Shown here piece by piece: positions 1-12,996 of a stretch of 12,996 nt of DNA; positions within the stretch are counted from its first letter, which is position 1; each line of letters starts with the position of its first letter. Location of the stretch: contig JAPDKB010000011.1 in NCBI GenBank assembly GCA_029258795.1, forward strand, positions 1 through 12,996, in the 5' to 3' direction. Below the pieces are notes generated by a model, which was not told the DNA's origin, did not search any database, and worked only from the letters and a program-made list of their open reading frames with translations. Source of the DNA: an archaeon (lineage in GTDB: Archaea > EX4484-52 > WAPT01). Both the position numbers and the translations under genes were made by a program.

Positions 1-53
1 ATGGTTGGTAAGGTTGGTTTTGAGTCGGCAGGATTTTTGACTGTGCGGGGATA

Positions 54-68
54 GAAAAGGTTAAAAAA
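54..68 (+). promoter_or_regulatory. Putative archaeal-type BRE/TATA promoter (GAAAAGG-TTAAAAAA) upstream of the ATG at 89
   Basis: Purine-rich BRE-like GAAAAGG followed by TTAAAAAA at 61-68, which starts 28 nt before the ATG at 89. This spacing fits a leaderless or short-leader archaeal transcript. The AT-rich background lowers specificity. Confidence 0.4.
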
Positions 69-88
69 GTTTGCTGGGTTTAATTTGT

Positions 89-196
89 ATGCCTAAAAGG
101 TTGGGTGAAGAGCACATTCAGTTTATAGTTGAAAGGTTAAAACAAGGAAAACCTTTGCCGGAAGAATTTAAATGGTTGTTGTTTGGAGGTAGGTAA
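89..196 (+). pseudogene. 35-aa ORF, probable truncated N-terminal remnant of a type III Mod-like site-specific DNA methyltransferase
   Basis: Translates to MPKRLGEEHIQFIVERLKQGKPLPEEFKWLLFGGR*. The pattern 'I.E.L..GKPLPE.(F/Y)K..LF' matches, from memory, the N-terminal helical segment of many Mod-like methyltransferases, which normally continues into an 'EL.(W/Y).GK' motif. Here it stops at TAA 194-196. Not in the supplied ORF track. Confidence 0.55.
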
Positions 197-239
197 GGTA
201 AGAAACTTTACAGTTTTGAGAATAAGAAAAAGGTATAAA

Positions 240-3200
240 ATGATGATAAATAGAACTCGCTTAAAGGTAGAATTAAGTAATCTTCTGCCTAAAATTAGAA
301 CACCCGAGCATATTTTTAATTTATTTCACTTGTTAAATTATCCTAAAGATTGTTTTTTTGATACAAGTTATAAAAGAAAACCAGAAAAGTTCGATCTCAA
401 AGTTGGGGAAAAAAAGAAAATAAAAAATATTTATACTATTTTAAAATTCCAAGAAAACTTAACAGTTTTTCTAGTTGAGGTTAAAACACTCTCCTCTGTG
501 CTAGTAAGATATCTAGCAAAGTTTTTTTCTGATAATTATGATTCTGTTTTATTAGTAATAACGAAAGATTATCATAATATTTTATTTGTTTTACCTGATT
601 ACGAGAGAGGACAAAAGGGAAAACCTAGACTAAAAATTACGAAATTGTATGTTGAAAGAGGAGAGCCGTACTATACTGCCCTAGAAATCTTATCTAATAT
701 AGCCTATGAGGGTGAATCAGATTGGAGGAAAATAAAAAGAAAATGGCAGGAAGCATTTAATGTAGAGAGAGTAACAGAAAAATTCTTTGAAGATTATAAA
801 ACTATTTTCTTTAAGATTAGAAATTATCTTCTCAAGCAAAAGATAGGTAGAAAAGAGGCTCACCAATTTACTTTACAGTTACTTAACAGAATTATGTTTG
901 TTTACTTTGTGGCAAAAAAAAGATGGCTAAATAATGATACGAGATTCATGAGATTTTTCTGGCAAAGATATTTAGTTGAAAGAACTAAAGGAAATGTAAA
1001 GAAAGATAGTTTCTATGATATTTGGCTTAAGCAATTATTTTTTAAAGCATTTAATAACAGACAATCGGAGATTACAGATTTACCAAAGGATATAAAGGAA
1101 ATGTTCTATGATTTCCCTTATCTTAATGGTGGTTTATTTGCAGAAAATGAATTAGATAAATTAAATGTCAAACTAACTGACGATCTTTTCAAAGAAATTT
1201 TTTTATTTTTTGAGAAGTACAATTTTACGATAAAAGAAGACATGCCTTTAGAAAGGGAGGTTGCTGTTGATCCAAAGATGATCGGTTATGTTTATGAATC
1301 TCTTGCTAATGTAGCTGAGGAAATTTATGATAGGAACGATTTGGGTATTTTTTACACTCCTACTATTGAGGTCTATTTTATGTGTAGGAGATCCTTAGTA
1401 GAATATTTGTCAAACCATCTTCCTGAAATACCAAAAGAAAAAATTTACGAATTTGTATTTGATGAGGATAAAGAAAAAGTAGAGAAATATTTTGATAAAA
1501 TAAATGCTTGGAGAAGGATAAAAGATGTATTAGACAATCTTTCTGTTGTTGACCCTGCATGTGGTTCTGGCGCGTTTTTAGTAGGAATGATGAATGTTCT
1601 GTATGAATTATATAAAATTGTTTTTAAACATTTGGGGAGGAAATGGAATGCTTTTGATTTGAAAAGTTCGATAATAAGCAGATCACTTTATGGGGTAGAT
1701 GTGATGCCTTGGGCAATTCGTGCTGCTGAATTGAGATTATGGTTACAATTAATAATAGAAACAGAATTTAGCAAAGAAGATCTAAAGAAAAGACCTTTAT
1801 TGCCAAATCTAAATCTTAATCTTAGAATTGGAGATTCTTTAGTTCAGGAGATAGGAGGAATGATGATTAGTTTGAAAAGTCCAGATATTTCTGAAAGGTT
1901 AAAGAAAAAACTCTACTGGCTGAAAAAAGAAAAGGAGAAGTATTTCTTTAATATCTCAAGTGAATTTATTAGTAGAAAAGATATACTGAAAGAGGAAGTA
2001 AAGCTTTTTGAGGAAATTATAGAAGAAAGAAAAAGAAAACTTTTGAAAAAGAGACAATTACTCGAAGAGATATCCAAAAATAAAAAAGCTTCACAAAAAT
2101 CCTTATTTAAAACGGTATCAAAATATGATAAGATTTCTTTTGGCGAGATAGAAAAACGAAATATAAAACAATTATTGGGAAAAATCCCTTCAAGTTTAAG
2201 CGAATTTAATAAGTTAATTCAAACACAGATTGAGAGGATTGATAAAGAAATAGGTGAACTAGAAAAAATAAAAGAAAACCTAGAAGATCCTGAAAAGAAA
2301 CCTTTTATTTGGGAAATTGATTTTGCCGAAATTTTTGGAGATAAAGGTGGGTTTGATATTGTTATTGGGAATCCTCCCTATGTAAGGCAGGAAAAGATTT
2401 CTCCACCTAATAAGACAAAAGCTGAGGTAACTTTAGAAGATAAAAGAGAGTATAAAGAAAAGTTGATAAAATCTGTAAAGAACAGATTTCCTATAATCGA
2501 AAAAATAGATAAGAAGAGTGATTATTACATTTACTTCTATTTCCATGGCTTGAGTTTGTTGAATGAGAAGGGTGTATTTTGTTTCATAACTTCAAATTCT
2601 TGGCTGGACGTAGAATTTGGTAAAGATTTACAAGAATTTCTCCTAAAATATGTTCCAATAGTTGCTATCTATGATAATCCAAAAAGAAGTTTCGAGCATG
2701 CAGATATAAACACGATAATTGCTCTATTTGGTGCTCCTAAAATTGAAGAAAAATTGATAGAAGATCTAAAAATAGAAACTAATAACTGGTCAATGTTAAA
2801 CCATATTGCTAAATTTGTAATGTTTAAAAAACCATTTGAGGAGGTTTTAACTTCCGAGAACTTAATTAAAATTGATGAAATCGATATTAAAGTTAAACAT
2901 AAAGAACTGATGGACTTGGTCGATAATGTGCTTAATACCGAAGATTTCAGAGTTTTTCCGATTTTGCAGGGGGATTTACTTAAAGATGGATGGGAATATC
3001 CAGAAAATTACGACAAAAATAAAGGAAGATTTAAAGCTGGGCAATATGTAGGGAATAAATGGGGTGGGAAGTTCTTAAGAGCTCCAGAAATCTTTTACAC
3101 AATTTTGAAGAAGGGAAAGGGGAAATTGGTTAGATTGGGAGATCTTACTAAAGTTAGAAGAGGATTTACGACAGGTGTGAACGATTTCTTTTATTTACCA

Positions 3201-4022
3201 AGTAAATATTTCGATATTAAGGAAGAAGGAAATTATTACAAATTAATTCCTAAGCAAGATGGATTACCAAAGGATATTAAGATAGAAAAAGAATTTCTAA
3301 AACCTGTTATAAAATCTCCAAGAGAATGCAAAACGATCATAATAAAGCCAGAAGATTTGAAACACAAGGTTTTCATTTGTAACAAATCAAAAAAAGAATT
3401 GAAAGGAACGGGAGCTTTGAAATACATTGAATGGGGAGAGAAGATGAAGTTTAATAAAGTACCGACTGTGGAGGGGAGAAAATATTGGTGGAGTTTAGGT
3501 GAAAGAAAAATAAGTGATGCATTATGCATGATGAGTTATAATGATCGTCATATCTTTTGGAAAAATGGAAAGTTTTTAGTAGATGCCAGATTTTATGATA
3601 TTTATGCAAAAAAAGAATATTCCAAAAATCTAATATTCTCTTTAAATTCAACTATAACTTTCTTAAGTGTAGAATTAAATGGAAGAATAAACCTTGGTGA
3701 AGGTGCTCTTGATTTTAAAGTTTATGAAGCTAAAAATATTATGATTTTTTCTCCTATAGCAATCTCAATTAAAAACATGAATAAAGGATTGCTGACTCGT
3801 GAAATCCGCTCAATCTTCGAAGAACTCGGTTTCGATCCTTCCAGACCGATTCGTGGGCAAGAGCCGAATCCTCTACCAGACAGAGCCGAGCTTGACAATA
3901 TTATTTTTGACGAACTCGGTTTAACCGAAGAGGAGAGGAAAGAGGTTTATTGGGCTGTTGCCGAGTTGGTGAAACAAAGGTTGGAAAAGGCGAGAAGTTT
4001 GAAGAAAAAAGGAGGGGTGTGA
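240..4022 (+). CDS. Eco57I/type IIG-like N6-adenine DNA methyltransferase with C-terminal target-recognition region (about 1260 aa)
   Basis: YLNGGLF, GIFYTP (motif X), SAM-binding motif I DPACGSGAFL (1551-1580), LYGVD, GDSL, catalytic motif IV GFDIVIGNPPY (NPPY 2370-2381) and FITSNSWL: gamma-class order typical of Eco57I-like enzymes. Start placed at ATG 240 (ATG 243 possible) rather than TTG 183, which lies inside the upstream remnant ORF. No clearly intact PD-(D/E)XK site seen in the N-terminal domain, only a weak VEVK. Confidence 0.9.
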   Translation: MMINRTRLKVELSNLLPKIRTPEHIFNLFHLLNYPKDCFFDTSYKRKPEKFDLKVGEKKKIKNIYTILKFQENLTVFLVEVKTLSSVLVRYLAKFFSDNYDSVLLVITKDYHNILFVLPDYERGQKGKPRLKITKLYVERGEPYYTALEILSNIAYEGESDWRKIKRKWQEAFNVERVTEKFFEDYKTIFFKIRNYLLKQKIGRKEAHQFTLQLLNRIMFVYFVAKKRWLNNDTRFMRFFWQRYLVERTKGNVKKDSFYDIWLKQLFFKAFNNRQSEITDLPKDIKEMFYDFPYLNGGLFAENELDKLNVKLTDDLFKEIFLFFEKYNFTIKEDMPLEREVAVDPKMIGYVYESLANVAEEIYDRNDLGIFYTPTIEVYFMCRRSLVEYLSNHLPEIPKEKIYEFVFDEDKEKVEKYFDKINAWRRIKDVLDNLSVVDPACGSGAFLVGMMNVLYELYKIVFKHLGRKWNAFDLKSSIISRSLYGVDVMPWAIRAAELRLWLQLIIETEFSKEDLKKRPLLPNLNLNLRIGDSLVQEIGGMMISLKSPDISERLKKKLYWLKKEKEKYFFNISSEFISRKDILKEEVKLFEEIIEERKRKLLKKRQLLEEISKNKKASQKSLFKTVSKYDKISFGEIEKRNIKQLLGKIPSSLSEFNKLIQTQIERIDKEIGELEKIKENLEDPEKKPFIWEIDFAEIFGDKGGFDIVIGNPPYVRQEKISPPNKTKAEVTLEDKREYKEKLIKSVKNRFPIIEKIDKKSDYYIYFYFHGLSLLNEKGVFCFITSNSWLDVEFGKDLQEFLLKYVPIVAIYDNPKRSFEHADINTIIALFGAPKIEEKLIEDLKIETNNWSMLNHIAKFVMFKKPFEEVLTSENLIKIDEIDIKVKHKELMDLVDNVLNTEDFRVFPILQGDLLKDGWEYPENYDKNKGRFKAGQYVGNKWGGKFLRAPEIFYTILKKGKGKLVRLGDLTKVRRGFTTGVNDFFYLPSKYFDIKEEGNYYKLIPKQDGLPKDIKIEKEFLKPVIKSPRECKTIIIKPEDLKHKVFICNKSKKELKGTGALKYIEWGEKMKFNKVPTVEGRKYWWSLGERKISDALCMMSYNDRHIFWKNGKFLVDARFYDIYAKKEYSKNLIFSLNSTITFLSVELNGRINLGEGALDFKVYEAKNIMIFSPIAISIKNMNKGLLTREIRSIFEELGFDPSRPIRGQEPNPLPDRAELDNIIFDELGLTEEERKEVYWAVAELVKQRLEKARSLKKKGGV

Positions 4023-4025
4023 AAA

Positions 4026-4907
4026 ATGATAGTAAAACCTCATACAAGCCTAAAACATAGGATTTTAGGAGTATATTTTAAAATATGCAGAGAAGTGGCT
4101 AAAAGGAGGGATTTATACTATGTAGACCTCTTTGCTGGCGATGGAGAAGCAAAATGTGAAGAGACACCAATAAAAAAATGGGATTCTCCTCTAATACATT
4201 CATTATTGAAAAATGCTGAAAAAGAGAATCTAAAACTACACTGTTTTTTAAATGAATTAGATAGAACAAGATATGAGAAATTAAAAGAAAAAGTATCATC
4301 CTATAATAAATATGTAGAAGATATAGAAAATGAAGATGCAAACAAAATATACAAAAAATTTTTGGAGAACATACCAAAAAATCAATGGTCTATTTGGTTC
4401 TTAGATCCCAGCAAACACTCAGATTTAAAATGGACTACCATAGAAGGAATTGCTAATCACAAGGGATGGGACAATATAAGTAGAGTAGAGAGAAAACCAG
4501 AATTAATTATAAATTTTATGACTTATACAATGCAACGAAGTATAAGGAGAAATGATGAAAGTATTACAGAAGCATTAGGAACGGATGTATGGAAAGAAAA
4601 AATAGAAAAAAATCCTAAAACTCCTGTATATGAAATATTTTTAAAGCTGTTTTTAGATCAACTCGAAAGATTAGGATATAACTGTACTTGGTTTTCAATA
4701 GAACAAACTCCCCCTCAGAGAACGCATCTTTATTATCTAATATTTGCAAATAATATCCCTTCCGCAATAAAAATAATAGCTGAAAAATTTGCTCCTTGGA
4801 TTAAAAGGACTATTAGAGATAAGTGGACAAAAGAAAATTTCAAATGGAGAATGATGACAAAAGCTAAAAAGCAAAGATATAAATTATTATGTGAATATGG
4901 GGGATAA
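4026..4907 (+). CDS. tcmP: Three-Cys-motif partner protein (TcmP family; class I SAM-dependent methyltransferase-like fold)
   Basis: Family motifs in the expected order: HT.LKH.IL..Y, YVDLFAGDG (4119-4145), DSP, FLNELD, DAN, FLDP, W.TI, ELIINF, YYLIFA. SD-like GGAGGGGTG at 4011-4019. The symbol refers to the three-Cys-motif partner family, not the tetracenomycin methyltransferase. Confidence 0.8.
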   Translation: MIVKPHTSLKHRILGVYFKICREVAKRRDLYYVDLFAGDGEAKCEETPIKKWDSPLIHSLLKNAEKENLKLHCFLNELDRTRYEKLKEKVSSYNKYVEDIENEDANKIYKKFLENIPKNQWSIWFLDPSKHSDLKWTTIEGIANHKGWDNISRVERKPELIINFMTYTMQRSIRRNDESITEALGTDVWKEKIEKNPKTPVYEIFLKLFLDQLERLGYNCTWFSIEQTPPQRTHLYYLIFANNIPSAIKIIAEKFAPWIKRTIRDKWTKENFKWRMMTKAKKQRYKLLCEYGG

Positions 4908-4908
4908 A

Positions 4909-6903
4909 ATGGATTTGAAATGTCCTATTTGTGGATCTGAAATGAAAATAGACAGAAAATCAAAATTAGCCGAATGTATAAATTGCGGATTGATTGCTTG
5001 GTATTATGAAGAGCAAACAAAAATGAAGCATAAAGTATTCGAAGATTATTTTGATAAATGGGTTAAAATTCTCGGTAAGTACTATAAACTAAATTATGTT
5101 GATGGTTTTGCTGGAGCAGGTTTATACTATGATAGAAATGGTAACTTCCATTATGGTTCTCCGATCTTAGCTGCAAATATAATAAGAAAAAATAAGAAAA
5201 AAGCCAACTTAGTTTTAATAGATAAAAATGAGAAAATTCTTAGTAATTTAAAAAAAATTATTGATTTTATAGAATTAGATAAATCATCGAATTTGAAAAT
5301 ATTTATTATTTCTAAAGATTTCAATTCAACTATCAATGAAATACTAAAAACTACAAATGGTAACTTGGCACCCACATTTGTTTTTGTGGATCCGTTCGGA
5401 TTTAACGATGTAAAATATGAGACTTTGAAGAATATTATGGAAAAGGTGCCAAAGCCAGAAATATTAATAAACTTTATGTTTAATGCTATTACAAGATTTC
5501 TAGGGATTAGAAATCTTTCTAAAAGTTTTAAAGAAGTATTTGGGTTAAAAAATTGGAGAGAAGCACTTGAAAAAATTCAAGGCACTCGCGAAGATAAGGT
5601 ATTACAACTTTATATTTCTCAACTTAAAAAAATCTCAAAATTCGTTTTTCCTTATAGATTAACTTTCCCTCGTAAAAGAAGGACATATTACTATCTTATC
5701 CATCTTACTAACTACTTAAAAGGAGCTTCTATTATGAAATCTAGTTTTGCGAAATATTCATATGGGAGGGTTGAATGGCTTGGAACTTATGGAGGACAAA
5801 TGAAATTAACAGAAATAGGTACTGTAAAGCTCAGCGAAATAAAGGGCTATTTACTCAAAAAATATGATAAGAAAAAAATTACTTTTAAACAAATAATTGA
5901 AGAAAATATAGATACGACATCATATCTTGAAAGCGATTTTAGAAAAGTAATTAAAAAATTAGAAAAGGAGGGCATTGTGTATGTAGAAAGATTTCCGAAA
6001 ATTGGTAAAAATGGTAAACCTCGGGCTGGCTTAGATCTCAATGATGTCATTTATTTCAATACATTCCCAAGCATCAAAAGAAAAACACTTCTTTACAGAA
6101 CAAAAGTAGAGTATGGAAATTTTACAATAAATCACATTTTAGGATGTTCACATGGATGTAAATATCCATGTTATGCATGTATGCTTGCAATTAGATATGG
6201 AAAGGTTAAAGATTATGAAGATTGGATACATCCAAGAATTGTGTCAAATGCTTTAGAATTATTGGATAAGGAAATACCCAAATATAAAAAGGAGATCGAT
6301 TTTGTTCATCTATCATTTACAACAGATCCTTTTATGTACGATCCTGTAAATAAAAGAGTATACCCACAGATAAAAGAATTGACATTAAAAATTATTGAAA
6401 AATTAAATAAAAATGGAATAAAAGTGACTGTATTAACAAAAGGTATATTCCCTAAAGAGCTTGTAAATTTTGATAAATTCAGCAAAGAGAACGAGTATGG
6501 TATTACATTAGTTTCCTTAAATGAAGATTTTAAAAAGAAATTTGAGCCTTATTCTGCTCCTTTCGAGGAGAGAATATCTTCTTTAAAATTCCTTCATGAA
6601 AATGGGCTTAAGACATGGGTAAGTATCGAACCTTATCCTACACCAAATCTTGATCCAGGAGCATATAATATTGAAAGGCTTTTGAATACAATCAAATTTG
6701 TTGATAAAATAATTTTTGGTAAATTAAACTATAATGTGAAATCAAATAAATTTGAAAATAATGAAGAATATTATAGGGAATGTGCAAAAAAGGTAATCGC
6801 TTTTTGTAAAAAATATGGAATTAAATATCATATAAAAGAAGGCACACCTTATAGCAATAATAAAACTAAAACTATCTTTAAGAATGACAAAAAACTCTTC
6901 TAA
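4909..6903 (+). CDS. tcmP: Fusion protein: Zn ribbon + TcmP-family SAM-binding domain + probable winged helix + SPL-like radical SAM domain
   Basis: CPIC-x14-CINC (4921-4986). TcmP motifs KHKVFEDYF..W, YVDGFAGAG (5095-5121), GSP, FVFVDPFGF, EILINFM, YYLIHLT. wHTH-like YLESDFRKVIKKLEKEG. Radical SAM part: INHILGCSHGCKYPCYAC (Cys 6145-6180), SFTTDPF, VLTKG, GITL, FEP, ERI..LK.L...G.KTWVSIEP, as in SplB-like proteins. Start placed at ATG 4909, 1 nt after the upstream stop; GTG 4891 and ATG 4897 are alternatives. Confidence 0.8.
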   Translation: MDLKCPICGSEMKIDRKSKLAECINCGLIAWYYEEQTKMKHKVFEDYFDKWVKILGKYYKLNYVDGFAGAGLYYDRNGNFHYGSPILAANIIRKNKKKANLVLIDKNEKILSNLKKIIDFIELDKSSNLKIFIISKDFNSTINEILKTTNGNLAPTFVFVDPFGFNDVKYETLKNIMEKVPKPEILINFMFNAITRFLGIRNLSKSFKEVFGLKNWREALEKIQGTREDKVLQLYISQLKKISKFVFPYRLTFPRKRRTYYYLIHLTNYLKGASIMKSSFAKYSYGRVEWLGTYGGQMKLTEIGTVKLSEIKGYLLKKYDKKKITFKQIIEENIDTTSYLESDFRKVIKKLEKEGIVYVERFPKIGKNGKPRAGLDLNDVIYFNTFPSIKRKTLLYRTKVEYGNFTINHILGCSHGCKYPCYACMLAIRYGKVKDYEDWIHPRIVSNALELLDKEIPKYKKEIDFVHLSFTTDPFMYDPVNKRVYPQIKELTLKIIEKLNKNGIKVTVLTKGIFPKELVNFDKFSKENEYGITLVSLNEDFKKKFEPYSAPFEERISSLKFLHENGLKTWVSIEPYPTPNLDPGAYNIERLLNTIKFVDKIIFGKLNYNVKSNKFENNEEYYRECAKKVIAFCKKYGIKYHIKEGTPYSNNKTKTIFKNDKKLF

Positions 6904-7717
6904 AAAAGTGGATAACATAAGTAAATCTGTAATTAAAAAAATAAAAAAAGAAGTTGAAAAAAGCGGGCATCCTGTTAGTTTGAAAACTTCAATTATTTTA
7001 AATAAGAAAGGTTGGTATGTGAGAAATGCGCCCAGATACTTTGATTCAAATTTAAAAATTTCTCGTGAAATAGATATTGTTGCACAAAAGAAATCTATTT
7101 ATGTAAAAGATGCTATTGATGTATTAATTATTGAATGCAAAAAATCTAAAGGTAAGCCTTGGGTCTTTTTTAGACAAAATAAATTTAATGCTGATGTACT
7201 ATCACTTAATGTAGATATGGCAGAAACGACTGAAGGTGCAATTTATGATTGGTTAGGGAAGCATATATTCAAAAAACATTATTATTACAAAAGACCTTGC
7301 CATACCTACTACTTTGTAGCTAACGCAAATCCAGCTAGTAAGGCAGGTAAGCAAATTTTTGATGCAACAGAGCAAGTCCTAAGTGCCTTAAGATTTTATT
7401 TGGTACAAAGATTTAATTTATTTTCAGAATATAGACTAAAGCCAAAAATTCCCACGTTTTTTTATCCAATAATTGTTTTTGATGGGAAGATGTTTGAAGT
7501 ATCGGTTGAAGAAGCGGATATAAATATAAAAGAAACAGATTGGATTTCTCTGTGGATAGAAAAAGAACTTAAAGAACCGTTACTTATGAAATTCTTATAC
7601 AGACAAGGTTTTCGCAGAGTAGTATACTCAAAACCAATTGTAATCGATATTGTAAAACTCGATTACTTTGAAGAATTTTTAAAAAATTTTGATAAGTTAA
7701 GTAGTGATCAAAAATGA
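6884..7717 (+). CDS. PD-(D/E)XK restriction-endonuclease-fold protein
   Basis: SGHP...GWYV....YFD.....REIDIVA (7064-7084)...LIIECKKS (E 7133-7135, K 7139-7141)..PWVFF...FYPIIVFDG: D and ExK catalytic arrangement. Overlaps the upstream gene by 20 nt (alternative GTG at 6908) and the downstream gene by ATGA. Confidence 0.7.
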   Translation: MTKNSSKKVDNISKSVIKKIKKEVEKSGHPVSLKTSIILNKKGWYVRNAPRYFDSNLKISREIDIVAQKKSIYVKDAIDVLIIECKKSKGKPWVFFRQNKFNADVLSLNVDMAETTEGAIYDWLGKHIFKKHYYYKRPCHTYYFVANANPASKAGKQIFDATEQVLSALRFYLVQRFNLFSEYRLKPKIPTFFYPIIVFDGKMFEVSVEEADINIKETDWISLWIEKELKEPLLMKFLYRQGFRRVVYSKPIVIDIVKLDYFEEFLKNFDKLSSDQK

Positions 7718-10700
7718 CAATTCCACCACAGATAATAGACAACGAAAGAATAAAGCTTTTGGATTTTATAGTTGGTATTCTCAAAGACAGTCCTAATACC
7801 AATCTAGATATCGCTACAGCTTTCTTCAACATCAAAGCTTTTGAAATGATAAAGGATTATGTTAAAGGTATCAAGAGGTTCAGGCTTCTTTTGGGAAAGG
7901 CACCAGAAATTAAAAGTGATAAAACATTAGGTGAGGAGTTACTAAGGATTATTAAAGAAGAGGTTGAAGGTTTGGAATTATCAAAAGAAAATGAGGATAA
8001 TGTAAAAACTTTTATTGAATTTTTGAAAAAATCGAATGTTGAAGTAAGAATCTATGACAAACAATTTTTGCATGGAAAAGCATTCATATTCGATAAGGCA
8101 GTTATTATCGGCTCCTCAAATTTCACTCCTGCTGGCTTAACTCACAATACAGAATTAAATTCAGTACATTTAGAAGCCCAAGCAGAATACGTAAGAAAAA
8201 ATTGGTTTGAGAAATTCTGGCAGGAAGCAAGAGATTTTAAAGAAGAATTAATTGAACTCTTAGAAGCTTCAAGATTTGGAAGTAAAGAATATACTCCTTA
8301 TGAGGTATTTATTAAAGTTCTTTATGAATTGCAAAAAGAAGATATACTTGAACAAGAAAAGATGGAAGAAAGAGAAGGTGCTATTTCTTCCAAAGTTGAG
8401 TTATCAGAGTTTCAGGAAGATGCTGTAATAAGAGTGAAATCAAGATTAAAGAAGTATGGTGGGGTAATAATCGCTGATTCTGTTGGTTTGGGTAAAACAT
8501 GGATAGCAAAGAAAATAATAGAAGAATTTGGTTTTTATGAAAGAAAAAATTTCCTTGTGATATGCCCTCCACAATTAAGAAAAATGTGGAGTGATGAGAT
8601 CAAAAGCATAATGTTACCAGCAAATGTAATGTCTTTAGAAGAGCTTGCATCTGAAAAATTTCTAGAGAAGGCAAACGAGATTACTTCAGGTCATTTAGAA
8701 GATGTCGAATTAGTAATTGTAGATGAAAGTCATAATTTAAGAAATCCTTTGTCAAATAGATGGGAAAATTTCTATAATTTAGTTTGGGAACATATAGCAA
8801 AAAAAGGAAAAAGACCCTATCTTATATTTTTAACCGCTACACCTATTAATAACACAATTTGGGATCTGTATTGGCAAATAATGCTAATAGTCGGAATGGA
8901 TAGAACAGCCTTCATTAAAGAAGGGATCTCAGACTTATTTAAATTCTTCAAAGAAGTTGATAAGAGAGGAGATGCAACTTTACTGAATGATCTCTTAAAC
9001 GAAATATCAATAAGGAGAACAAGAGAGTATATAAAAAAGAATTATCCTAATGCGACTATAAAAGGTAAAAAAATAACATTTCCAGAAAGAATTCTTGAGA
9101 ATATAGAGTACAAATTGGGAGAAACCTATAGAGGGATGTATAAGAAAATAGCAAAAACAATAGCTGAAGACCTTACAATGGCGTGTTATCAATTACTGAA
9201 ATACAAAAAAGTTGAGAAGCTCAGTAAAGAAGAAGAATGGGAATTAAATGGGATGATTGCATTGTCTGGAATTTTAAAAACCATTTTTTTAAAAAGATTA
9301 GAAAGTAGTGTAGAAGCTTTTAGAATAAGTGTTAGGACACATATTCATTTTCTTCAAAAACTTAAGGAGTATATGAAGAAAGGAAAACTTCTAACAAAAT
9401 CAACTTTCAATAAGTACATTATGTGTTTGGATGAAGAGATAGAGAAATTTGAGGATAGATTAGAAAAGTTTAATCCAAATGAATATAACATAGATGAATT
9501 GTTTTCAGATATAGACAAGGACATAAAAATTTTAAAAGAAATTTTAAAGTCCGTTGAAGAAATAACACCAGAGAAAGACGCTAAGCTCAACGTAGTAAAG
9601 AAAAAACTATTAGAATTATCAAAAAAAGGTCAAATAATACTGTTTACTTATTATGAGGATACTCTAAATTATATTTGGAATCAGCTACAAAACTCCAAAG
9701 AATTTAAGAAACTAAAAATAGAAAAAATATCTGGTTCTACTTCAACACGCGAGAGAATAAGAATAGAAAAGGACTTATTAGCGAAAAAGATTGATATTTT
9801 GTTAAGTACAGATGTACTCTCGGAAGGAACGAACTTGCAATCGGCACGAATTATAGTTAACTATGACTTACACTGGAATCCTACGCGCATGCTACAAAGA
9901 GCAGGAAGAATAGACAGGATAGGTTCTCCTTATAAGAAAATTTTTGTTTTTAATGTGTTCCCAGAAGATGAGCTTGAAAGTTTGCTAAAGTTAGTGCAGA
10001 TCCTTCAAACTAAAATTACAAAGATAGATGAGGCTATAGGTTTAGATCAGAAAATTCTGGGAGAAGAGATTCATCCTAAAGTATTTGGTATAATTAGAAA
10101 GATAAGAATGTGCGATACAAAAATTTTAGATGAGTTAGATGAGATGGCTTTTGGAGGTGGAGAAAAATTCTATCAGCCAATAAAAGATTTCATGAAAAGG
10201 CGTGGGTTGGAGGAGTTGAAAAGAATTGAAAAAATTCCTTACGGGATACACAGCGGTCTTAAAAAAGGTATAAGAGGTATTTTCTTTTATTATAAATACT
10301 CTGATTTGTTTCATTTTTGGTATTTATATGATATTGAAAATAAAAAATTTATTACAAATAAATCGGAGATAATAGATTTTATTTCATGCTCGCCAAATGA
10401 AAAAAGAGTAATTCCAGAATTCTCCCAAAAAGTATATGAAATAAATGCTCGAGTGATCCAAAAAATAGAAGAAAATTATAAAGAATTCGAACAAGAACAA
10501 AAAGTGGATACCGAATTAGTAAGAATAGTTAAAGATAAAAGTTCGAGATTTATAAGGGATGTGATAAAAGAAGTTGAAATTTGTATCGATGAACATCTTA
10601 TAGAACATCCAGATGATCAAGATGTAATCTCTTTATGGGATAATGCAAGAAATAAATTGTTAACAATCTCTTTAACAAAAAAAAGATTACAAATTTTAAG

Positions 10701-10857
10701 AAAGATATGGAAAAAGTATAAAAAAACTGGTGATTGGAAACAACTAATAAGAGAAATTTGGAATTTTGTTAAGCAATTGAGTTCTAGGAAAAGAACAGAA
10801 ATTCCACAGTTTGAAAAGAATAAACTAAAGCTTGTTGCAATAGATTTCATTTCCTAA
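7714..10857 (+). CDS. Phospholipase D-family (single HKD) nuclease fused to SNF2-type SF2 helicase/translocase
   Basis: DIATAFF, HGKAFIFD (HxKx4D, 8071-8094) and GSSN (8110-8121). Walker A ADSVGLGKT (8473-8499), DESH (8722-8733), LTATP, KRLESS, TDVLSEG.NLQ, NYDLHWNP and motif VI QRAGRIDR (9895-9918). Confidence 0.92.
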   Translation: MTIPPQIIDNERIKLLDFIVGILKDSPNTNLDIATAFFNIKAFEMIKDYVKGIKRFRLLLGKAPEIKSDKTLGEELLRIIKEEVEGLELSKENEDNVKTFIEFLKKSNVEVRIYDKQFLHGKAFIFDKAVIIGSSNFTPAGLTHNTELNSVHLEAQAEYVRKNWFEKFWQEARDFKEELIELLEASRFGSKEYTPYEVFIKVLYELQKEDILEQEKMEEREGAISSKVELSEFQEDAVIRVKSRLKKYGGVIIADSVGLGKTWIAKKIIEEFGFYERKNFLVICPPQLRKMWSDEIKSIMLPANVMSLEELASEKFLEKANEITSGHLEDVELVIVDESHNLRNPLSNRWENFYNLVWEHIAKKGKRPYLIFLTATPINNTIWDLYWQIMLIVGMDRTAFIKEGISDLFKFFKEVDKRGDATLLNDLLNEISIRRTREYIKKNYPNATIKGKKITFPERILENIEYKLGETYRGMYKKIAKTIAEDLTMACYQLLKYKKVEKLSKEEEWELNGMIALSGILKTIFLKRLESSVEAFRISVRTHIHFLQKLKEYMKKGKLLTKSTFNKYIMCLDEEIEKFEDRLEKFNPNEYNIDELFSDIDKDIKILKEILKSVEEITPEKDAKLNVVKKKLLELSKKGQIILFTYYEDTLNYIWNQLQNSKEFKKLKIEKISGSTSTRERIRIEKDLLAKKIDILLSTDVLSEGTNLQSARIIVNYDLHWNPTRMLQRAGRIDRIGSPYKKIFVFNVFPEDELESLLKLVQILQTKITKIDEAIGLDQKILGEEIHPKVFGIIRKIRMCDTKILDELDEMAFGGGEKFYQPIKDFMKRRGLEELKRIEKIPYGIHSGLKKGIRGIFFYYKYSDLFHFWYLYDIENKKFITNKSEIIDFISCSPNEKRVIPEFSQKVYEINARVIQKIEENYKEFEQEQKVDTELVRIVKDKSSRFIRDVIKEVEICIDEHLIEHPDDQDVISLWDNARNKLLTISLTKKRLQILRKIWKKYKKTGDWKQLIREIWNFVKQLSSRKRTEIPQFEKNKLKLVAIDFIS

Positions 10858-11525
10858 TGAATTCCTACTTCTTAGGGTTTATTGGGGTATCTCTTCAACT
10901 TATTCTTATTTTGTCTATTAAAAGTTATTTACATCTTGAACGAGAAAAGCCGAATTTAAAAGATCAGTTTATTTGGACTATTGTTGGTCTTATTGGAACT
11001 TTATTTTTATTTTTCTTATTAAAAGTTTTTTTGCCTATAGATGAAAATAAGTCTAGTCTTTATAATGCTATATTTTTTATATTAGGGGTAACACCTCTTT
11101 TGGAAGAGTTTTTATATAGAAGAGTAATACTTCAACATTTCTTAAATTTAAAGGAGCAATCTTTTTCAATAAAGGAATTATTAGCATTAATATGGATGAG
11201 TATATCTTTAATTATTCCACCTACTTTTTTAGGACAATATACTTTAAAACATATTCTTTACACTTTTGTTGCTTTTTTACTTCCTTTCTGTTATTTTTCG
11301 TTTAAAAAATCAGAAAGGAAGAAACCTTTTATAAATTGTTTATCAAATCTTATTTTTTTAATTTCGCAGGATGTTTTGTTTGTTCTAGGACATGGAAGTT
11401 CCGCATCCATGTCTCTATTTTTTACAGGATTTTTATACGGTTTTCTTTATTTAGAGAGCAAAACAATTATACCCTCATTGATTGCACACTATTTCTATAA
11501 TTTTCTCATTTTTATTTATTCTTAA
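10857..11525 (+). CDS. CPBP (Abi / type II CAAX) family intramembrane glutamic endopeptidase
   Basis: Several hydrophobic segments; motif 1 PLLEEFLYR (EExxxR), motif 2 FVLGH (FxxxH), motif 4 SLIAHYFYN (HxxxN). TAATG overlap with the helicase stop. Confidence 0.8.
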   Translation: MNSYFLGFIGVSLQLILILSIKSYLHLEREKPNLKDQFIWTIVGLIGTLFLFFLLKVFLPIDENKSSLYNAIFFILGVTPLLEEFLYRRVILQHFLNLKEQSFSIKELLALIWMSISLIIPPTFLGQYTLKHILYTFVAFLLPFCYFSFKKSERKKPFINCLSNLIFLISQDVLFVLGHGSSASMSLFFTGFLYGFLYLESKTIIPSLIAHYFYNFLIFIYS

Positions 11526-11679
11526 CTTACTTAGCTTCTAAAATTTTGGCAAATTCTATTTACAAGAACAAAAAATCACCAAACTATTAGAAAACTTTTC
11601 GTATTCGTCTGAAACGGTTAATAGATCCGCAATAAGGGCATACGAGATATTTTGGAAGTATATGAAAATCTTCTCTAAA

Positions 11680-11718
11680 GGAAAGTTTATAAAGTTTTAT
11701 TTACTAAAGTAAATAAAA
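11680..11718 (+). promoter_or_regulatory. Putative BRE/TATA promoter with an adjacent 11-bp inverted repeat (possible operator)
   Basis: GGAAAG-TTTATAAA (TATA 11686-11693) followed by TTTTATTTACT-aa-AGTAAATAAAA (11695-11705 / 11708-11718), a perfect inverted repeat ending just before an ATG at 11719. Confidence 0.45.
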
Positions 11719-11822
11719 ATGGAAATGTTGGATGGTCTTTAGTTTGTTTGCTGTTCTGTTGGTTCTGATGTGTTAGATGACATGCATTATAGACTTTATA
11801 CTACAACACTTCATTAAGCAAA

Positions 11823-11840
11823 GTTGAAAAATTCTTCAAC
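11823..11840. repeat. 18-bp near-perfect palindrome GTTGAAAAATTCTTCAAC, possible regulator binding site
   Basis: 8 of 9 symmetric positions pair; lies about 40 bp upstream of the TATA-like box before the GH5 gene. Confidence 0.3.
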
Positions 11841-11875
11841 ACAAAGTTTAACTTGCCGAGTCAGTGATGCAGTAA

Positions 11876-11890
11876 GAGAATTATATAAAA
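11876..11890 (+). promoter_or_regulatory. Putative BRE/TATA promoter of the GH5 gene
   Basis: GAGAA-TTATATAAAA (TATA 11881-11888), ending 24 nt before the ATG at 11913. No SD directly before the ATG, consistent with a near-leaderless archaeal transcript. Confidence 0.45.
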
Positions 11891-11912
11891 AGGATGAACG
11901 TATTTAATATAT

Positions 11913-12860
11913 ATGACAAATAATAAGGTTGAGTATAGTTTTGTAAATCATAAAATAATGCTTAAAGGTGTTTCTATAGCAGACCCTCTTAAGCTTGTGA
12001 AAGATGATAAAATTGATATTAGGAGAAAATTACGGTTTATAAAAAAATATCATTTAAATACTATTCGAGTGCCAATTCTTCCAGGATTTTGGAGAGCTTA
12101 CCCAGATTTCTATTTTACATATTTAGAACAATTAGCAGATGCGTGTAAAAAAGAGGAAATGTTCTTAATTATAGATTGGCATGCCATAGGTAATCCTGTA
12201 AAAGGAGAAACTAGGATGGTAAACAAATACCTTTGTATAAAAAGAAAGAAGTTCTTACTTTATGACGCAAATATGGATATAGCTATAAAATTTTGGACAT
12301 CTATCTCTAATATTTTTCAATACGAGGATTATGTGATCTTTGAAATATTTAATGAACCTTGTCCAGATAGTAAACCTATTCCAAAATTAGGCTTATCTCC
12401 TTTATATTGGAAAGACTGGAAATCAAAGGCAGAAAAAATAATCAACATTATTAGGAGAAAAACATATAATTTTATATTAATTGGTACAATTAATTGGTGT
12501 AATAATATAGAGAAAGTTGTGGAAAACCCTATAAACGAGGAGAACATAGCTTATGTTCTTCACCCTTATCCAGGACATGAGGGTTGGATGAAAAATATAA
12601 AGCTAGCTATTAAAAATAATCTTCCTATATTTATAACCGAATGGGGATTTAAAGAAAATACTTCTTCTAAAATATTTAGAGGTAAGAAAGAAAGTTATGC
12701 TCTTCCCTTGTTAAACCTTTTAGAAAAAAATAAGATTAGTTGGATAGCATGGTGTTATGATACTGTGTGGGGACCTGCACTTCTTAATTCTTGGAGAAAG
12801 GATGATTACACAAAGTGGGGACAATTTCTTTTTAATTGGTTAAATAAGCATAAAAAATAG
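11913..12860 (+). CDS. Glycoside hydrolase family 5 (cellulase-family) protein
   Basis: LKGV, NTIRVPI, IIDWH, acid/base FEIFNEP (NEP 12351-12359), LHPY, nucleophile PIFITEWG (E 12639-12641) and ISWIAW: the conserved GH5 residues are present. No hydrophobic N-terminal signal visible. Confidence 0.88.
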   Translation: MTNNKVEYSFVNHKIMLKGVSIADPLKLVKDDKIDIRRKLRFIKKYHLNTIRVPILPGFWRAYPDFYFTYLEQLADACKKEEMFLIIDWHAIGNPVKGETRMVNKYLCIKRKKFLLYDANMDIAIKFWTSISNIFQYEDYVIFEIFNEPCPDSKPIPKLGLSPLYWKDWKSKAEKIINIIRRKTYNFILIGTINWCNNIEKVVENPINEENIAYVLHPYPGHEGWMKNIKLAIKNNLPIFITEWGFKENTSSKIFRGKKESYALPLLNLLEKNKISWIAWCYDTVWGPALLNSWRKDDYTKWGQFLFNWLNKHKK

Positions 12861-12868
12861 AAAATAAG

Positions 12869-12994
12869 CTATGACACGCACATTATTTGGCATTCACCAT
12901 TGACTATGTTTGGGAGACAGCCAGAGGAAAAGCAGAGCACTTCTATGCCTGTGTTTGTTGTCATTATTTTGCCTTTATCCTTGCATAGTTGCCA
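12869..12994 (-). CDS. Probable 3' end of a convergent gene with a Cys-rich C-terminus (partial, runs off the window)
   Basis: Open minus-strand frame ...WQLCKDKGKIMTTNTGIEVLCFSSGCLPNIVNGECQIMCVS* ends at TAG (12869-12871), 8 bp from the GH5 stop. About 41% GC by hand count versus much lower upstream. Confidence 0.45.
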   Translation of the reverse strand, partial: WQLCKDKGKIMTTNTGIEVLCFSSGCLPNIVNGECQIMCVS

Positions 12995-12996
12995 TA

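Follow-up and report, generated by a model that had tools for sequence, protein, structure and literature searches.

The window analysed here is a 12,996-nucleotide (nt) stretch of archaeal DNA (lineage EX4484-52; WAPT01), positions 1 to 12,996 of the forward strand of contig JAPDKB010000011.1 (assembly GCA_029258795.1). At 4909-6903 of its + strand lies a gene that joins a zinc ribbon, a TcmP domain, a winged helix-turn-helix (wHTH) and a radical S-adenosylmethionine (SAM) domain in a single chain of 664 amino acids (aa). Translation of 4909-6903 gives 664 residues without an internal stop, and an open frame of about 2 kb in DNA of 29% G+C is far more than chance gives. The ATG at 4909 stands one base after the stop codon of the upstream gene, with a Shine-Dalgarno-like GGGGG run 6 nt before it, which suggests that the N-terminal extension is probably translated. 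The initial annotation had described a single uninterrupted 664-codon frame with these four parts, and both the translation and the domain models bear it out. It had also placed a helix-wing segment at about 5820-6060 and the radical SAM domain from about 6075 onwards, in agreement with the mapped wHTH (5821-5979) and radical SAM domain (6070-6858). An AlphaFold2 model of the fused protein, built from a 52-sequence alignment, had a mean pLDDT (per-residue confidence) of 92.5 and a pTM (predicted template modelling score) of 0.89; the latter value suggests that the domains are packed in a fixed arrangement.

Since the split arrangement of these domains is commoner than the fused one (see below), the fusion might be an artefact of assembly, or of a frameshift, that joins two separate genes. 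We give this explanation practically no weight. A word-indexed search of 5.8 billion proteins returned 218 matches, and 49 of the 120 clusters listed, from varied bacterial and archaeal sources, cover at least 90% of the fused protein at 37-71% identity; several of the 49 are named 'three-Cys-motif partner protein TcmP' by NCBI. The alignment runs unbroken over the wHTH-radical SAM junction, and fused open reading frames (ORFs) are found in independent assemblies (loci L001, 645 aa; L004, 638 aa; L009, L011, L013, L056 and L070). A stop or frameshift at 6060-6075 had been named as the outcome that would expose an artefact, and sequence comparison found the frame open there in the independent assemblies. 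As far as sequence comparison goes, the artefact is refuted. A separate search turned up no larger fusions (1163-3320 aa), which by the nature of that search is weak evidence, and Foldseek against viral models returned generic methyltransferase and radical SAM matches alone, with no fused viral relative.

The radical SAM domain (6070-6858, + strand) was assigned from PF04055, homologues and fold; PF04055 matches residues 407-573 with 38.5 bits against a cut-off of 29.5. Conservation and alignment with spore photoproduct lyase (SPL) point to C413-x3-C417-x3-C421, followed by Y422 (6145-6171, + strand), as the cluster-binding triad. All 52 sequences of one set and all 35 of another, the latter being stand-alone relatives, carry the three cysteines. 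C424, which together with C417 and C421 would give a canonical Cx3Cx2C, is a cysteine in the window protein alone, and the conserved motif is therefore Cx3Cx3C. P420 is missing in 12 of the 35 stand-alone relatives, which thus show the canonical Cx3Cx2C. Y422 occurs throughout the set of 52 and in 29 of the 35 relatives, and it aligns with Y98 of SPL, the tyrosine after the third cysteine of that enzyme.

By fold, the closest relative of the radical SAM half in the PDB is SPL, which headed the Foldseek results (4k9r at E 8.5e-7; 4fhf with a TMt of 0.56; range 0.53-0.56). When a profile of the 35 radical SAM domains was run against the PDB, SPL was the sole family with a significant match (E 1.1e-5, about 190 residues); the triad falls on the [4Fe-4S] cluster cysteines of SPL, with P420 as a one-residue insertion. 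Phe470, in 52 of 52 and 27 of 35 sequences, takes the place of SPL Cys140, which several of the SPL entries among the fold matches carry in mutated form and which is presumably the hydrogen-atom donor. Compared with SPL (4fhc, 4fhf, 4k9r), the window protein shares the fold, the cluster cysteines and the next tyrosine, and differs in the inserted proline, in the phenylalanine at the Cys140 position and in carrying a fused methyltransferase-like domain. The SPL families themselves did not recognise it: PF20903 gave no match to the radical SAM half at E<=1, and TIGR04070 was absent from the NCBIfam matches at E<=0.01. Three SplB-like models stayed below their cut-offs, namely PA0069 (NF033668, 44.4 against 360), Rv2578c (NF038135, 44.5 against 430) and mobile pair protein B (TIGR04470, 33.6 against 410).

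The same 35-domain profile also aligned by hhalign with gp41 of Gordonia phage ThankyouJordi (probability 76.7%, E 2e-5, 203 columns), a true DUF5131 protein (Pfam E 3e-101) with the motif Cx6Cx2C. DUF5131 (PF07505) scored 16 bits against 28.9 on the radical SAM half, over profile positions 1-44 of 243 alone. Judged by these profile and fold comparisons, the radical SAM half belongs to a third subfamily, which lies between DUF5131 and SPL and is homologous to both. The initial annotation had called it SPL-like and had set it against the usual DUF5131 partner of TcmP. The label holds for fold and distant homology and fails for family membership, and the contrast itself did not survive, the domain being homologous to both families and passing the cut-off of neither. 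Nor is the contrast deep, because in RadicalSAM.org DUF5131 and SPL are sub-clusters 5-2 and 5-3 of one megacluster (PMC9477430). Two weak matches connect these subfamilies with a named mobile pair: ThankyouJordi gp41 resembles 'radical SAM mobile pair protein A' (TIGR04471, E 3.8e-18), and the subfamily of the window resembles 'mobile pair protein B' (TIGR04470), which hints that the A/B pair may combine the two sister subfamilies. The radical SAM subfamily also occurs in other architectures: behind a 740-residue N-terminus without an assigned domain (P0129, 1002 aa), with a C-terminal helix-turn-helix of the sigma-70 region 4 type (P0153) and with a CxxCxxCC domain (P0207).

The TcmP domain (5011-5757, + strand) is of the class I Rossmann methyltransferase-like type. 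TIGR04474 covers residues 35-283 (E 2.5e-53, 181.7 bits against a cut-off of 53) over profile positions 1-262 of 263. Motif I reads D65-G-F-A-G-x-G71 and motif IV D161-P-F-G164; across 48 TcmP sequences, K40, Y47, D65, S84, D161, P162 and E184 (window numbering) are invariant. We take the combination of DxFAGxG and DPFG to resemble the motifs of methyltransferases acting on exocyclic amines (RsmD, Trm1, RlmJ). This likeness is supported by the fold search, in which the N-terminal half retrieved Trm1, SpeE, CmoA, TrmM and RlmJ/DUF519 from the PDB with a TMt of up to 0.59, and not by any sequence-profile match in the PDB, where a search with the full-length alignment gave nothing significant. 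The wHTH (Pfam GMT-wHTH, PF22560; 5821-5979, + strand) covers residues 305-357 and passes marginally, with 27.6 bits against a cut-off of 27; in the model it consists of helices 304-319, 326-333 and 341-353 plus strands. The complete TcmP domain and the helix-wing segment proposed at the outset are confirmed by these two scores. A query of the ESM Atlas with residues 31-385 returned TcmP and GMT-wHTH clusters alone.

The N-terminal zinc ribbon (4909-5004, + strand) was recognised from the sequence. Its cysteines C5, C8, C23 and C26 sit on three short strands in the AlphaFold2 model (pLDDT 86-92). Among the 155 TcmP-bearing proteins retrieved, the full CxxC...CxxC within the first 60 residues occurs once, in the window's own protein. 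P0002, 71% identical to the fused protein, has three of the four ribbon cysteines when counted from its annotated start. The ribbon is specific to this lineage and no family-wide trait; the C4 ribbon first noticed is present in the fused protein and is not a feature of the family.

Across genomes the fused form is in the minority. A phmmer search of 1.84 billion representatives gave 4872 matches at E<=1e-3 and 222 at E<=1e-30. The best 150 are mostly stand-alone proteins of two kinds: TcmP-wHTH, about 360 aa long and aligned with residues 30-383, and radical SAM, 255-290 aa long and aligned with 388-650. Among these 150, P0043 alone matches residues 30-661 in one stretch. In species-representative genomes of bacteria and archaea at least 592 loci were confirmed, of which we analysed 80. 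Twelve loci are fused (one of them, L003, by tblastn alone), and in 50 a TcmP ORF lies directly upstream of the radical SAM gene on the same strand, with gaps of -19 to 252 nt. TcmP is adjacent in some other arrangement in three loci, six are cut by a contig end, and nine have the radical SAM gene without a detectable TcmP. TcmP is fused or adjacent in 65 of the 80 loci, or of the 74 that remain once the truncated ones are set aside. A split pair, TcmP-wHTH and then radical SAM, is the rule and the fusion a minority form, as had been expected when TcmP and its three-Cys partner were described as normally separate neighbours; in Gordonia phage ThankyouJordi, too, a TcmP-wHTH gene lies beside a DUF5131 gene.

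A quick maximum-likelihood tree of 79 radical SAM domains (IQ-TREE, with SH-aLRT support) places all fused and half-fused (wHTH plus radical SAM) forms in one 21-row clade with a support of 96; the remaining 58 rows are split or TcmP-less throughout. Archaea and bacteria are interleaved over the whole tree. Fusions have also formed in other combinations: P0227 carries TcmP fused to a different radical SAM domain of SPL type (PF20903 E 2e-18), and a group of 585-596 aa (P0069, P0124) has a divergent TcmP without wHTH. Recurrence of fusion and adjacency in such varied forms supports well the functional link of the Rosetta-stone kind that had been proposed for this gene; the further proposal, that the two sites catalyse sequential steps on one substrate, stays conditional.

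Several loci deserve separate mention. One Actinomycetota contig (L040, counted among the 50) has the module twice, as a split pair (364 + 281 aa) and as a fused 588-aa copy; they lie at 9977-11953 and 14566-16332, 2.6 kb apart, on opposite strands and in different radical SAM clades. On two haloarchaeal plasmids (L083, L084) the order is radical SAM and then TcmP, the reverse of the domain order in the window; a second, larger radical SAM gene is transcribed divergently, and an integrase lies nearby in L084. The radical SAM domains of L055 (Rikenellaceae), L056 (Stahlbacteria) and L070 (an unclassified bacterium) are near-identical, with end branches of 0.065-0.079, which suggests recent horizontal transfer among them. 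In phages, tblastn with the radical SAM half hit 16 records, with one close match (52%, unannotated); the radical SAM genes of the other records are 24-33% identical, and the one record examined had no TcmP neighbour.

Clustering of the neighbours of the 80 loci revealed a sole recurrent partner, an Eco57I-type enzyme, present in 12 loci. In nine of the 80 it is co-directional with TcmP and directly upstream of it, often overlapping, and these loci fall in both main radical SAM clades. The HSDR_N nuclease domain is found on the Eco57I-type enzyme in L048 (24.5 bits, narrowly under the 25-bit cut-off), L050, L054, L071 and L077, and a TaqI_C specificity domain is also present in L048, L050 and L054, which makes these complete type IIG enzymes. 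The L071 enzyme is a methyltransferase of type I-like character, and a gene for a specificity subunit comes after it. Units of Eco57I-type, TcmP and radical SAM genes are flanked by housekeeping genes, for pilus components (L054), polynucleotide phosphorylase and DNA polymerase III delta (L050), and lepA and signal peptidase (L077). In L080 a gene for a GmrSD-type modification-dependent restriction endonuclease (6867-8027) lies directly downstream of a unit of methyltransferase, TcmP and radical SAM genes.

We ran Pfam on 150 of 315 neighbouring ORFs (37 loci), plus 25 chosen ORFs from methyltransferase-linked loci. Among the 37 loci, DNA methyltransferase domains occur in six, phage-type integrases in four and a terminase pair in one; McrBC, a type I R subunit, PIN, RadC, Schlafen/AlbA, NACHT, SLATT, HEPN and toxin genes were also found, with ordinary metabolic genes mixed in. 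In the ThankyouJordi prophage the gene after the immunity repressor is TcmP-wHTH, which the DUF5131 gene faces in convergent orientation. The integrases, the terminase pair and the toxin genes, the mixed radical SAM tree and the Gordonia prophage copy together argue that the widespread module of TcmP and radical SAM genes is horizontally mobile.

In the window the fused gene is the third of five + strand genes that abut or overlap from 183 to 10857: a methyltransferase, a solo TcmP, the fusion, a 277-aa protein and a helicase. The 183-4022 gene (+ strand) encodes a 1279-aa Eco57I/MmeI-type, type IIG-like N6-adenine DNA methyltransferase with an NPPY motif (PF07669, E 1e-26, 94.5 bits; PADLOC REase_MTase_IIG, E 1.3e-52). 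No nuclease domain was detected in this protein: residues 1-439 gave no HSDR_N or MmeI N-terminal match at E<=0.1, and the sole domain match in the first ~430 residues (183-1500) is a weak one to the MmeI helical spacer (E 0.074). A ...FLVEVK... stretch in the N-terminal region could be an ExK nuclease motif, and in L001 the counterpart of this region is a separate ORF of 306 aa. The stand-alone TcmP paralogue (4026-4907, + strand; 293 aa; TIGR04474 E 1.8e-32, 113.3 bits) has no wHTH; it keeps the family-invariant residues and shows DPSK instead of the DPFG of the fusion. Of the 80 related loci, just one has an additional TcmP that stands two genes upstream of the radical SAM gene.

The 277-aa protein (6884-7717, + strand), whose start overlaps the end of the fused gene, belongs to no named family and matched nothing in Pfam, NCBIfam, PADLOC or PHROG. 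It has 52 homologues with invariant D64, E84, C85 and K86 and a model of pLDDT 92.3; the Foldseek matches of this model among PD-(D/E)xK nucleases, namely the R2 endonuclease domain, Hjc, AF1548 and McrC, are local and weak, all of them above E 0.001. It probably represents an unnamed PD-(D/E)xK nuclease family. The next gene (7714-10857, + strand) encodes a 1047-aa fusion of a PLD(HKD) nuclease to an SNF2 helicase (PF13091, PF00271, PF00176, PF04851), with PADLOC C3a139 'HKD+Snf2' as the best match (E 1.4e-54) and scores under the DrmD and DpdE cut-offs.

Taken as a whole, the fused gene product is a compact chain with two SAM-type active-site scaffolds and a winged helix, and it is homologous to a DNA-acting radical SAM enzyme. 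We tentatively propose, with a probability of roughly 40%, that the gene is the single-chain form of the mobile two-gene module and encodes a two-active-site SAM-dependent modifier of nucleic-acid bases, probably those of DNA, within a defence-type cassette. Nucleic-acid chemistry is suggested because SPL is the top fold and profile match of one half and Trm1, RlmJ and TrmM are among the matches of the other; DNA is favoured over RNA because an Eco57I-type enzyme lies directly upstream and co-directional in nine of the 80 loci. In the proposed mechanism the winged helix would dock the enzyme on a nucleic acid, of which double-stranded DNA is the likeliest, and a base would be flipped out as in SPL and in the amino-methyltransferases. 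At the TcmP site a group would first be transferred from SAM by polar chemistry, probably a methyl group to an exocyclic amine; the radical SAM site would then use a 5'-deoxyadenosyl radical to act a second time, on that nucleotide or on its neighbour. The product would be a hypermodified base that might act as a mark of self or, where a phage carries the module, have a protective role, and in the co-directional run of the window this mark might be part of a self/non-self system of the restriction-modification type.

A number of observations weigh against this proposal. The radical SAM gene occurs without a detectable TcmP in nine of the 74 evaluable loci, an Eco57I-type methyltransferase is present at all in just 12 of 80, and housekeeping genes make up many of the neighbours. 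A type IIG enzyme itself methylates DNA, and the proposal does not account for its coupling to a second modifier. Among solved structures, the TcmP half is nearest to enzymes that act on RNA or small molecules (Trm1, RlmJ, SpeE, CmoA), and a PDB profile search with the TcmP alignment found none significant, its sole natural match being the putative methylase HI0767 (E 1.8). The probable 277-aa nuclease and the HKD-SNF2 helicase accompany the pair in none of the 80 loci (helicase matches in L026 and L044 are weak), so their link to the fusion may be mere co-location on an island. The initial suggestion that DNA is the substrate gained support from the operon adjacency to type IIG enzymes; the choice of DNA stays provisional, the TcmP half being nearest to RNA methyltransferases.

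This last point is the strength of a reading in which the protein modifies transfer RNA or ribosomal RNA, as a housekeeping enzyme or as a defence effector: Trm1, RlmJ, TrmM and CmoA are the best structural neighbours of the TcmP half, and many radical SAM enzymes modify RNA. A patchy and horizontally mixed distribution is not what such an enzyme would lead one to expect, the operon linkage is to DNA restriction-modification genes rather than to translation genes, and the closest relative of the radical SAM half acts on DNA; we regard RNA modification as unlikely. A bolder reading is restriction-modification based on radical SAM chemistry, in which TcmP would mark self DNA and the radical SAM site would place a radical lesion, crosslink or strand damage in unmarked DNA. 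Small, scattered horizontally, lying among housekeeping genes and by integrases, the module does resemble a selfish two-gene restriction-modification cassette; it is found in a prophage immunity region and as a PADLOC defence candidate, and the type IIG enzyme next door sets a precedent for single-chain restriction-modification. If so, the single-chain form would be the analogue of a type IIG enzyme and would turn SPL-type chemistry into an attack on invader DNA. We consider this quite improbable, however, since a radical SAM enzyme without its TcmP, as in the nine loci above, would be toxic, the window already has two nuclease-type proteins, and we know of no radical SAM enzyme that acts as a restriction effector. 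A milder alternative is that both sites may jointly build a previously unseen hypermodified DNA base.

Closest to SPL itself would be a lesion-reversing DNA repair lyase, in which TcmP would serve as an accessory subunit for the binding of SAM or DNA. The top fold and profile match and the alignment of Y422 with Y98 speak for it; the failure of both SPL family models to match speaks against it, and one would not expect to meet a repair enzyme on cassettes that are mobile and tied to type IIG enzymes. Because the position of SPL Cys140 is occupied by phenylalanine, we hold this to be the weakest of the rivals that concern function, weaker than RNA modification or restriction, and very improbable.

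Among known systems, the proposed base modifier is nearest to the pair of TcmP and DUF5131 proteins (TIGR04474 with PF07505; genes 42 and 41 of ThankyouJordi). Gene 42 scores 186.9 bits with TIGR04474 and 37.5 bits with PF22560, its partner is a homologous three-cysteine barrel of radical SAM type, and both modules are mobile. In contrast to the phage pair, with convergent genes and a Cx6Cx2C motif in gp41, the window has one chain and Cx3Cx3C. A mechanistic precedent is gp53 of phage M6, described as an SPL-like radical SAM isomerase of thymidine hypermodification that acts on DNA (PMC8989533). It builds a modified DNA base by SPL-like radical SAM chemistry, as is proposed here for the fused protein; gp53 differs in working with a kinase, a transferase and a pyridoxal phosphate enzyme on 5-hydroxymethyldeoxyuridine, and not with a TcmP-type domain.

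In PADLOC, the TcmP-wHTH half has matches to two models, PDC-M30A (residues 30-359, E 2.9e-25) and PDC-M41A, and residues 397-451 weakly match PDC-M41B (E 5.5e-4); both PDC-M30 and PDC-M41 are candidates only, and PADLOC has no separate model for the fused form. With type IIG systems, DISARM, BREX and Dpd the window shares the presence in one operon of an N6-adenine methyltransferase, an SNF2 helicase and PLD or PD-(D/E)xK nucleases. Membership in DISARM, Dpd or BREX was rejected, with scores of 170.3 against 610 for DrmD, 114.8 against 500 for DpdE and 62.7 against 900 for PglX, and the window has no DrmA/B, PglZ, BrxC or Dpd tRNA-guanine transglycosylase-type gene. Three leads from the literature, Ophion, ParA-linked radical SAM proteins and DndC, proved unrelated.

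The family, its name and fused members in databases are already public, as are TcmP proteins as PADLOC defence candidates. In the literature searched we found no biochemical or genetic study of the module of TcmP and its three-Cys partner; it yielded just passing annotations and one superfamily table on TcmP and DUF5131. New here are a fused variant whose radical SAM half lies outside both named families, the corrected cysteine motif, and the cassette of type IIG, TcmP and radical SAM genes. The single-chain form, the SPL-related radical SAM barrel and the operon coupling to type IIG enzymes make a named but functionally blank family testable, and one 664-residue protein from an organism of low G+C is convenient for reconstitution and structure work. 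Should the proposed base modification be correct, it would be a second example, after gp53 of phage M6, of radical SAM chemistry on DNA bases, and such chemistry would be widespread, in at least 592 species-representative genomes of bacteria and archaea.

No tRNA gene, Rfam family, meaningful repeat, promoter or terminator signal was detected in the window. Its remaining genes follow the co-directional run. At 10857-11525 (+ strand) lies a gene for a CPBP (Rce1-like) intramembrane protease (PF02517, E 4.6e-8), the start of which overlaps the stop codon of the helicase gene, and after a gap of 387 nt comes a GH5 cellulase gene at 11913-12860 (+ strand).

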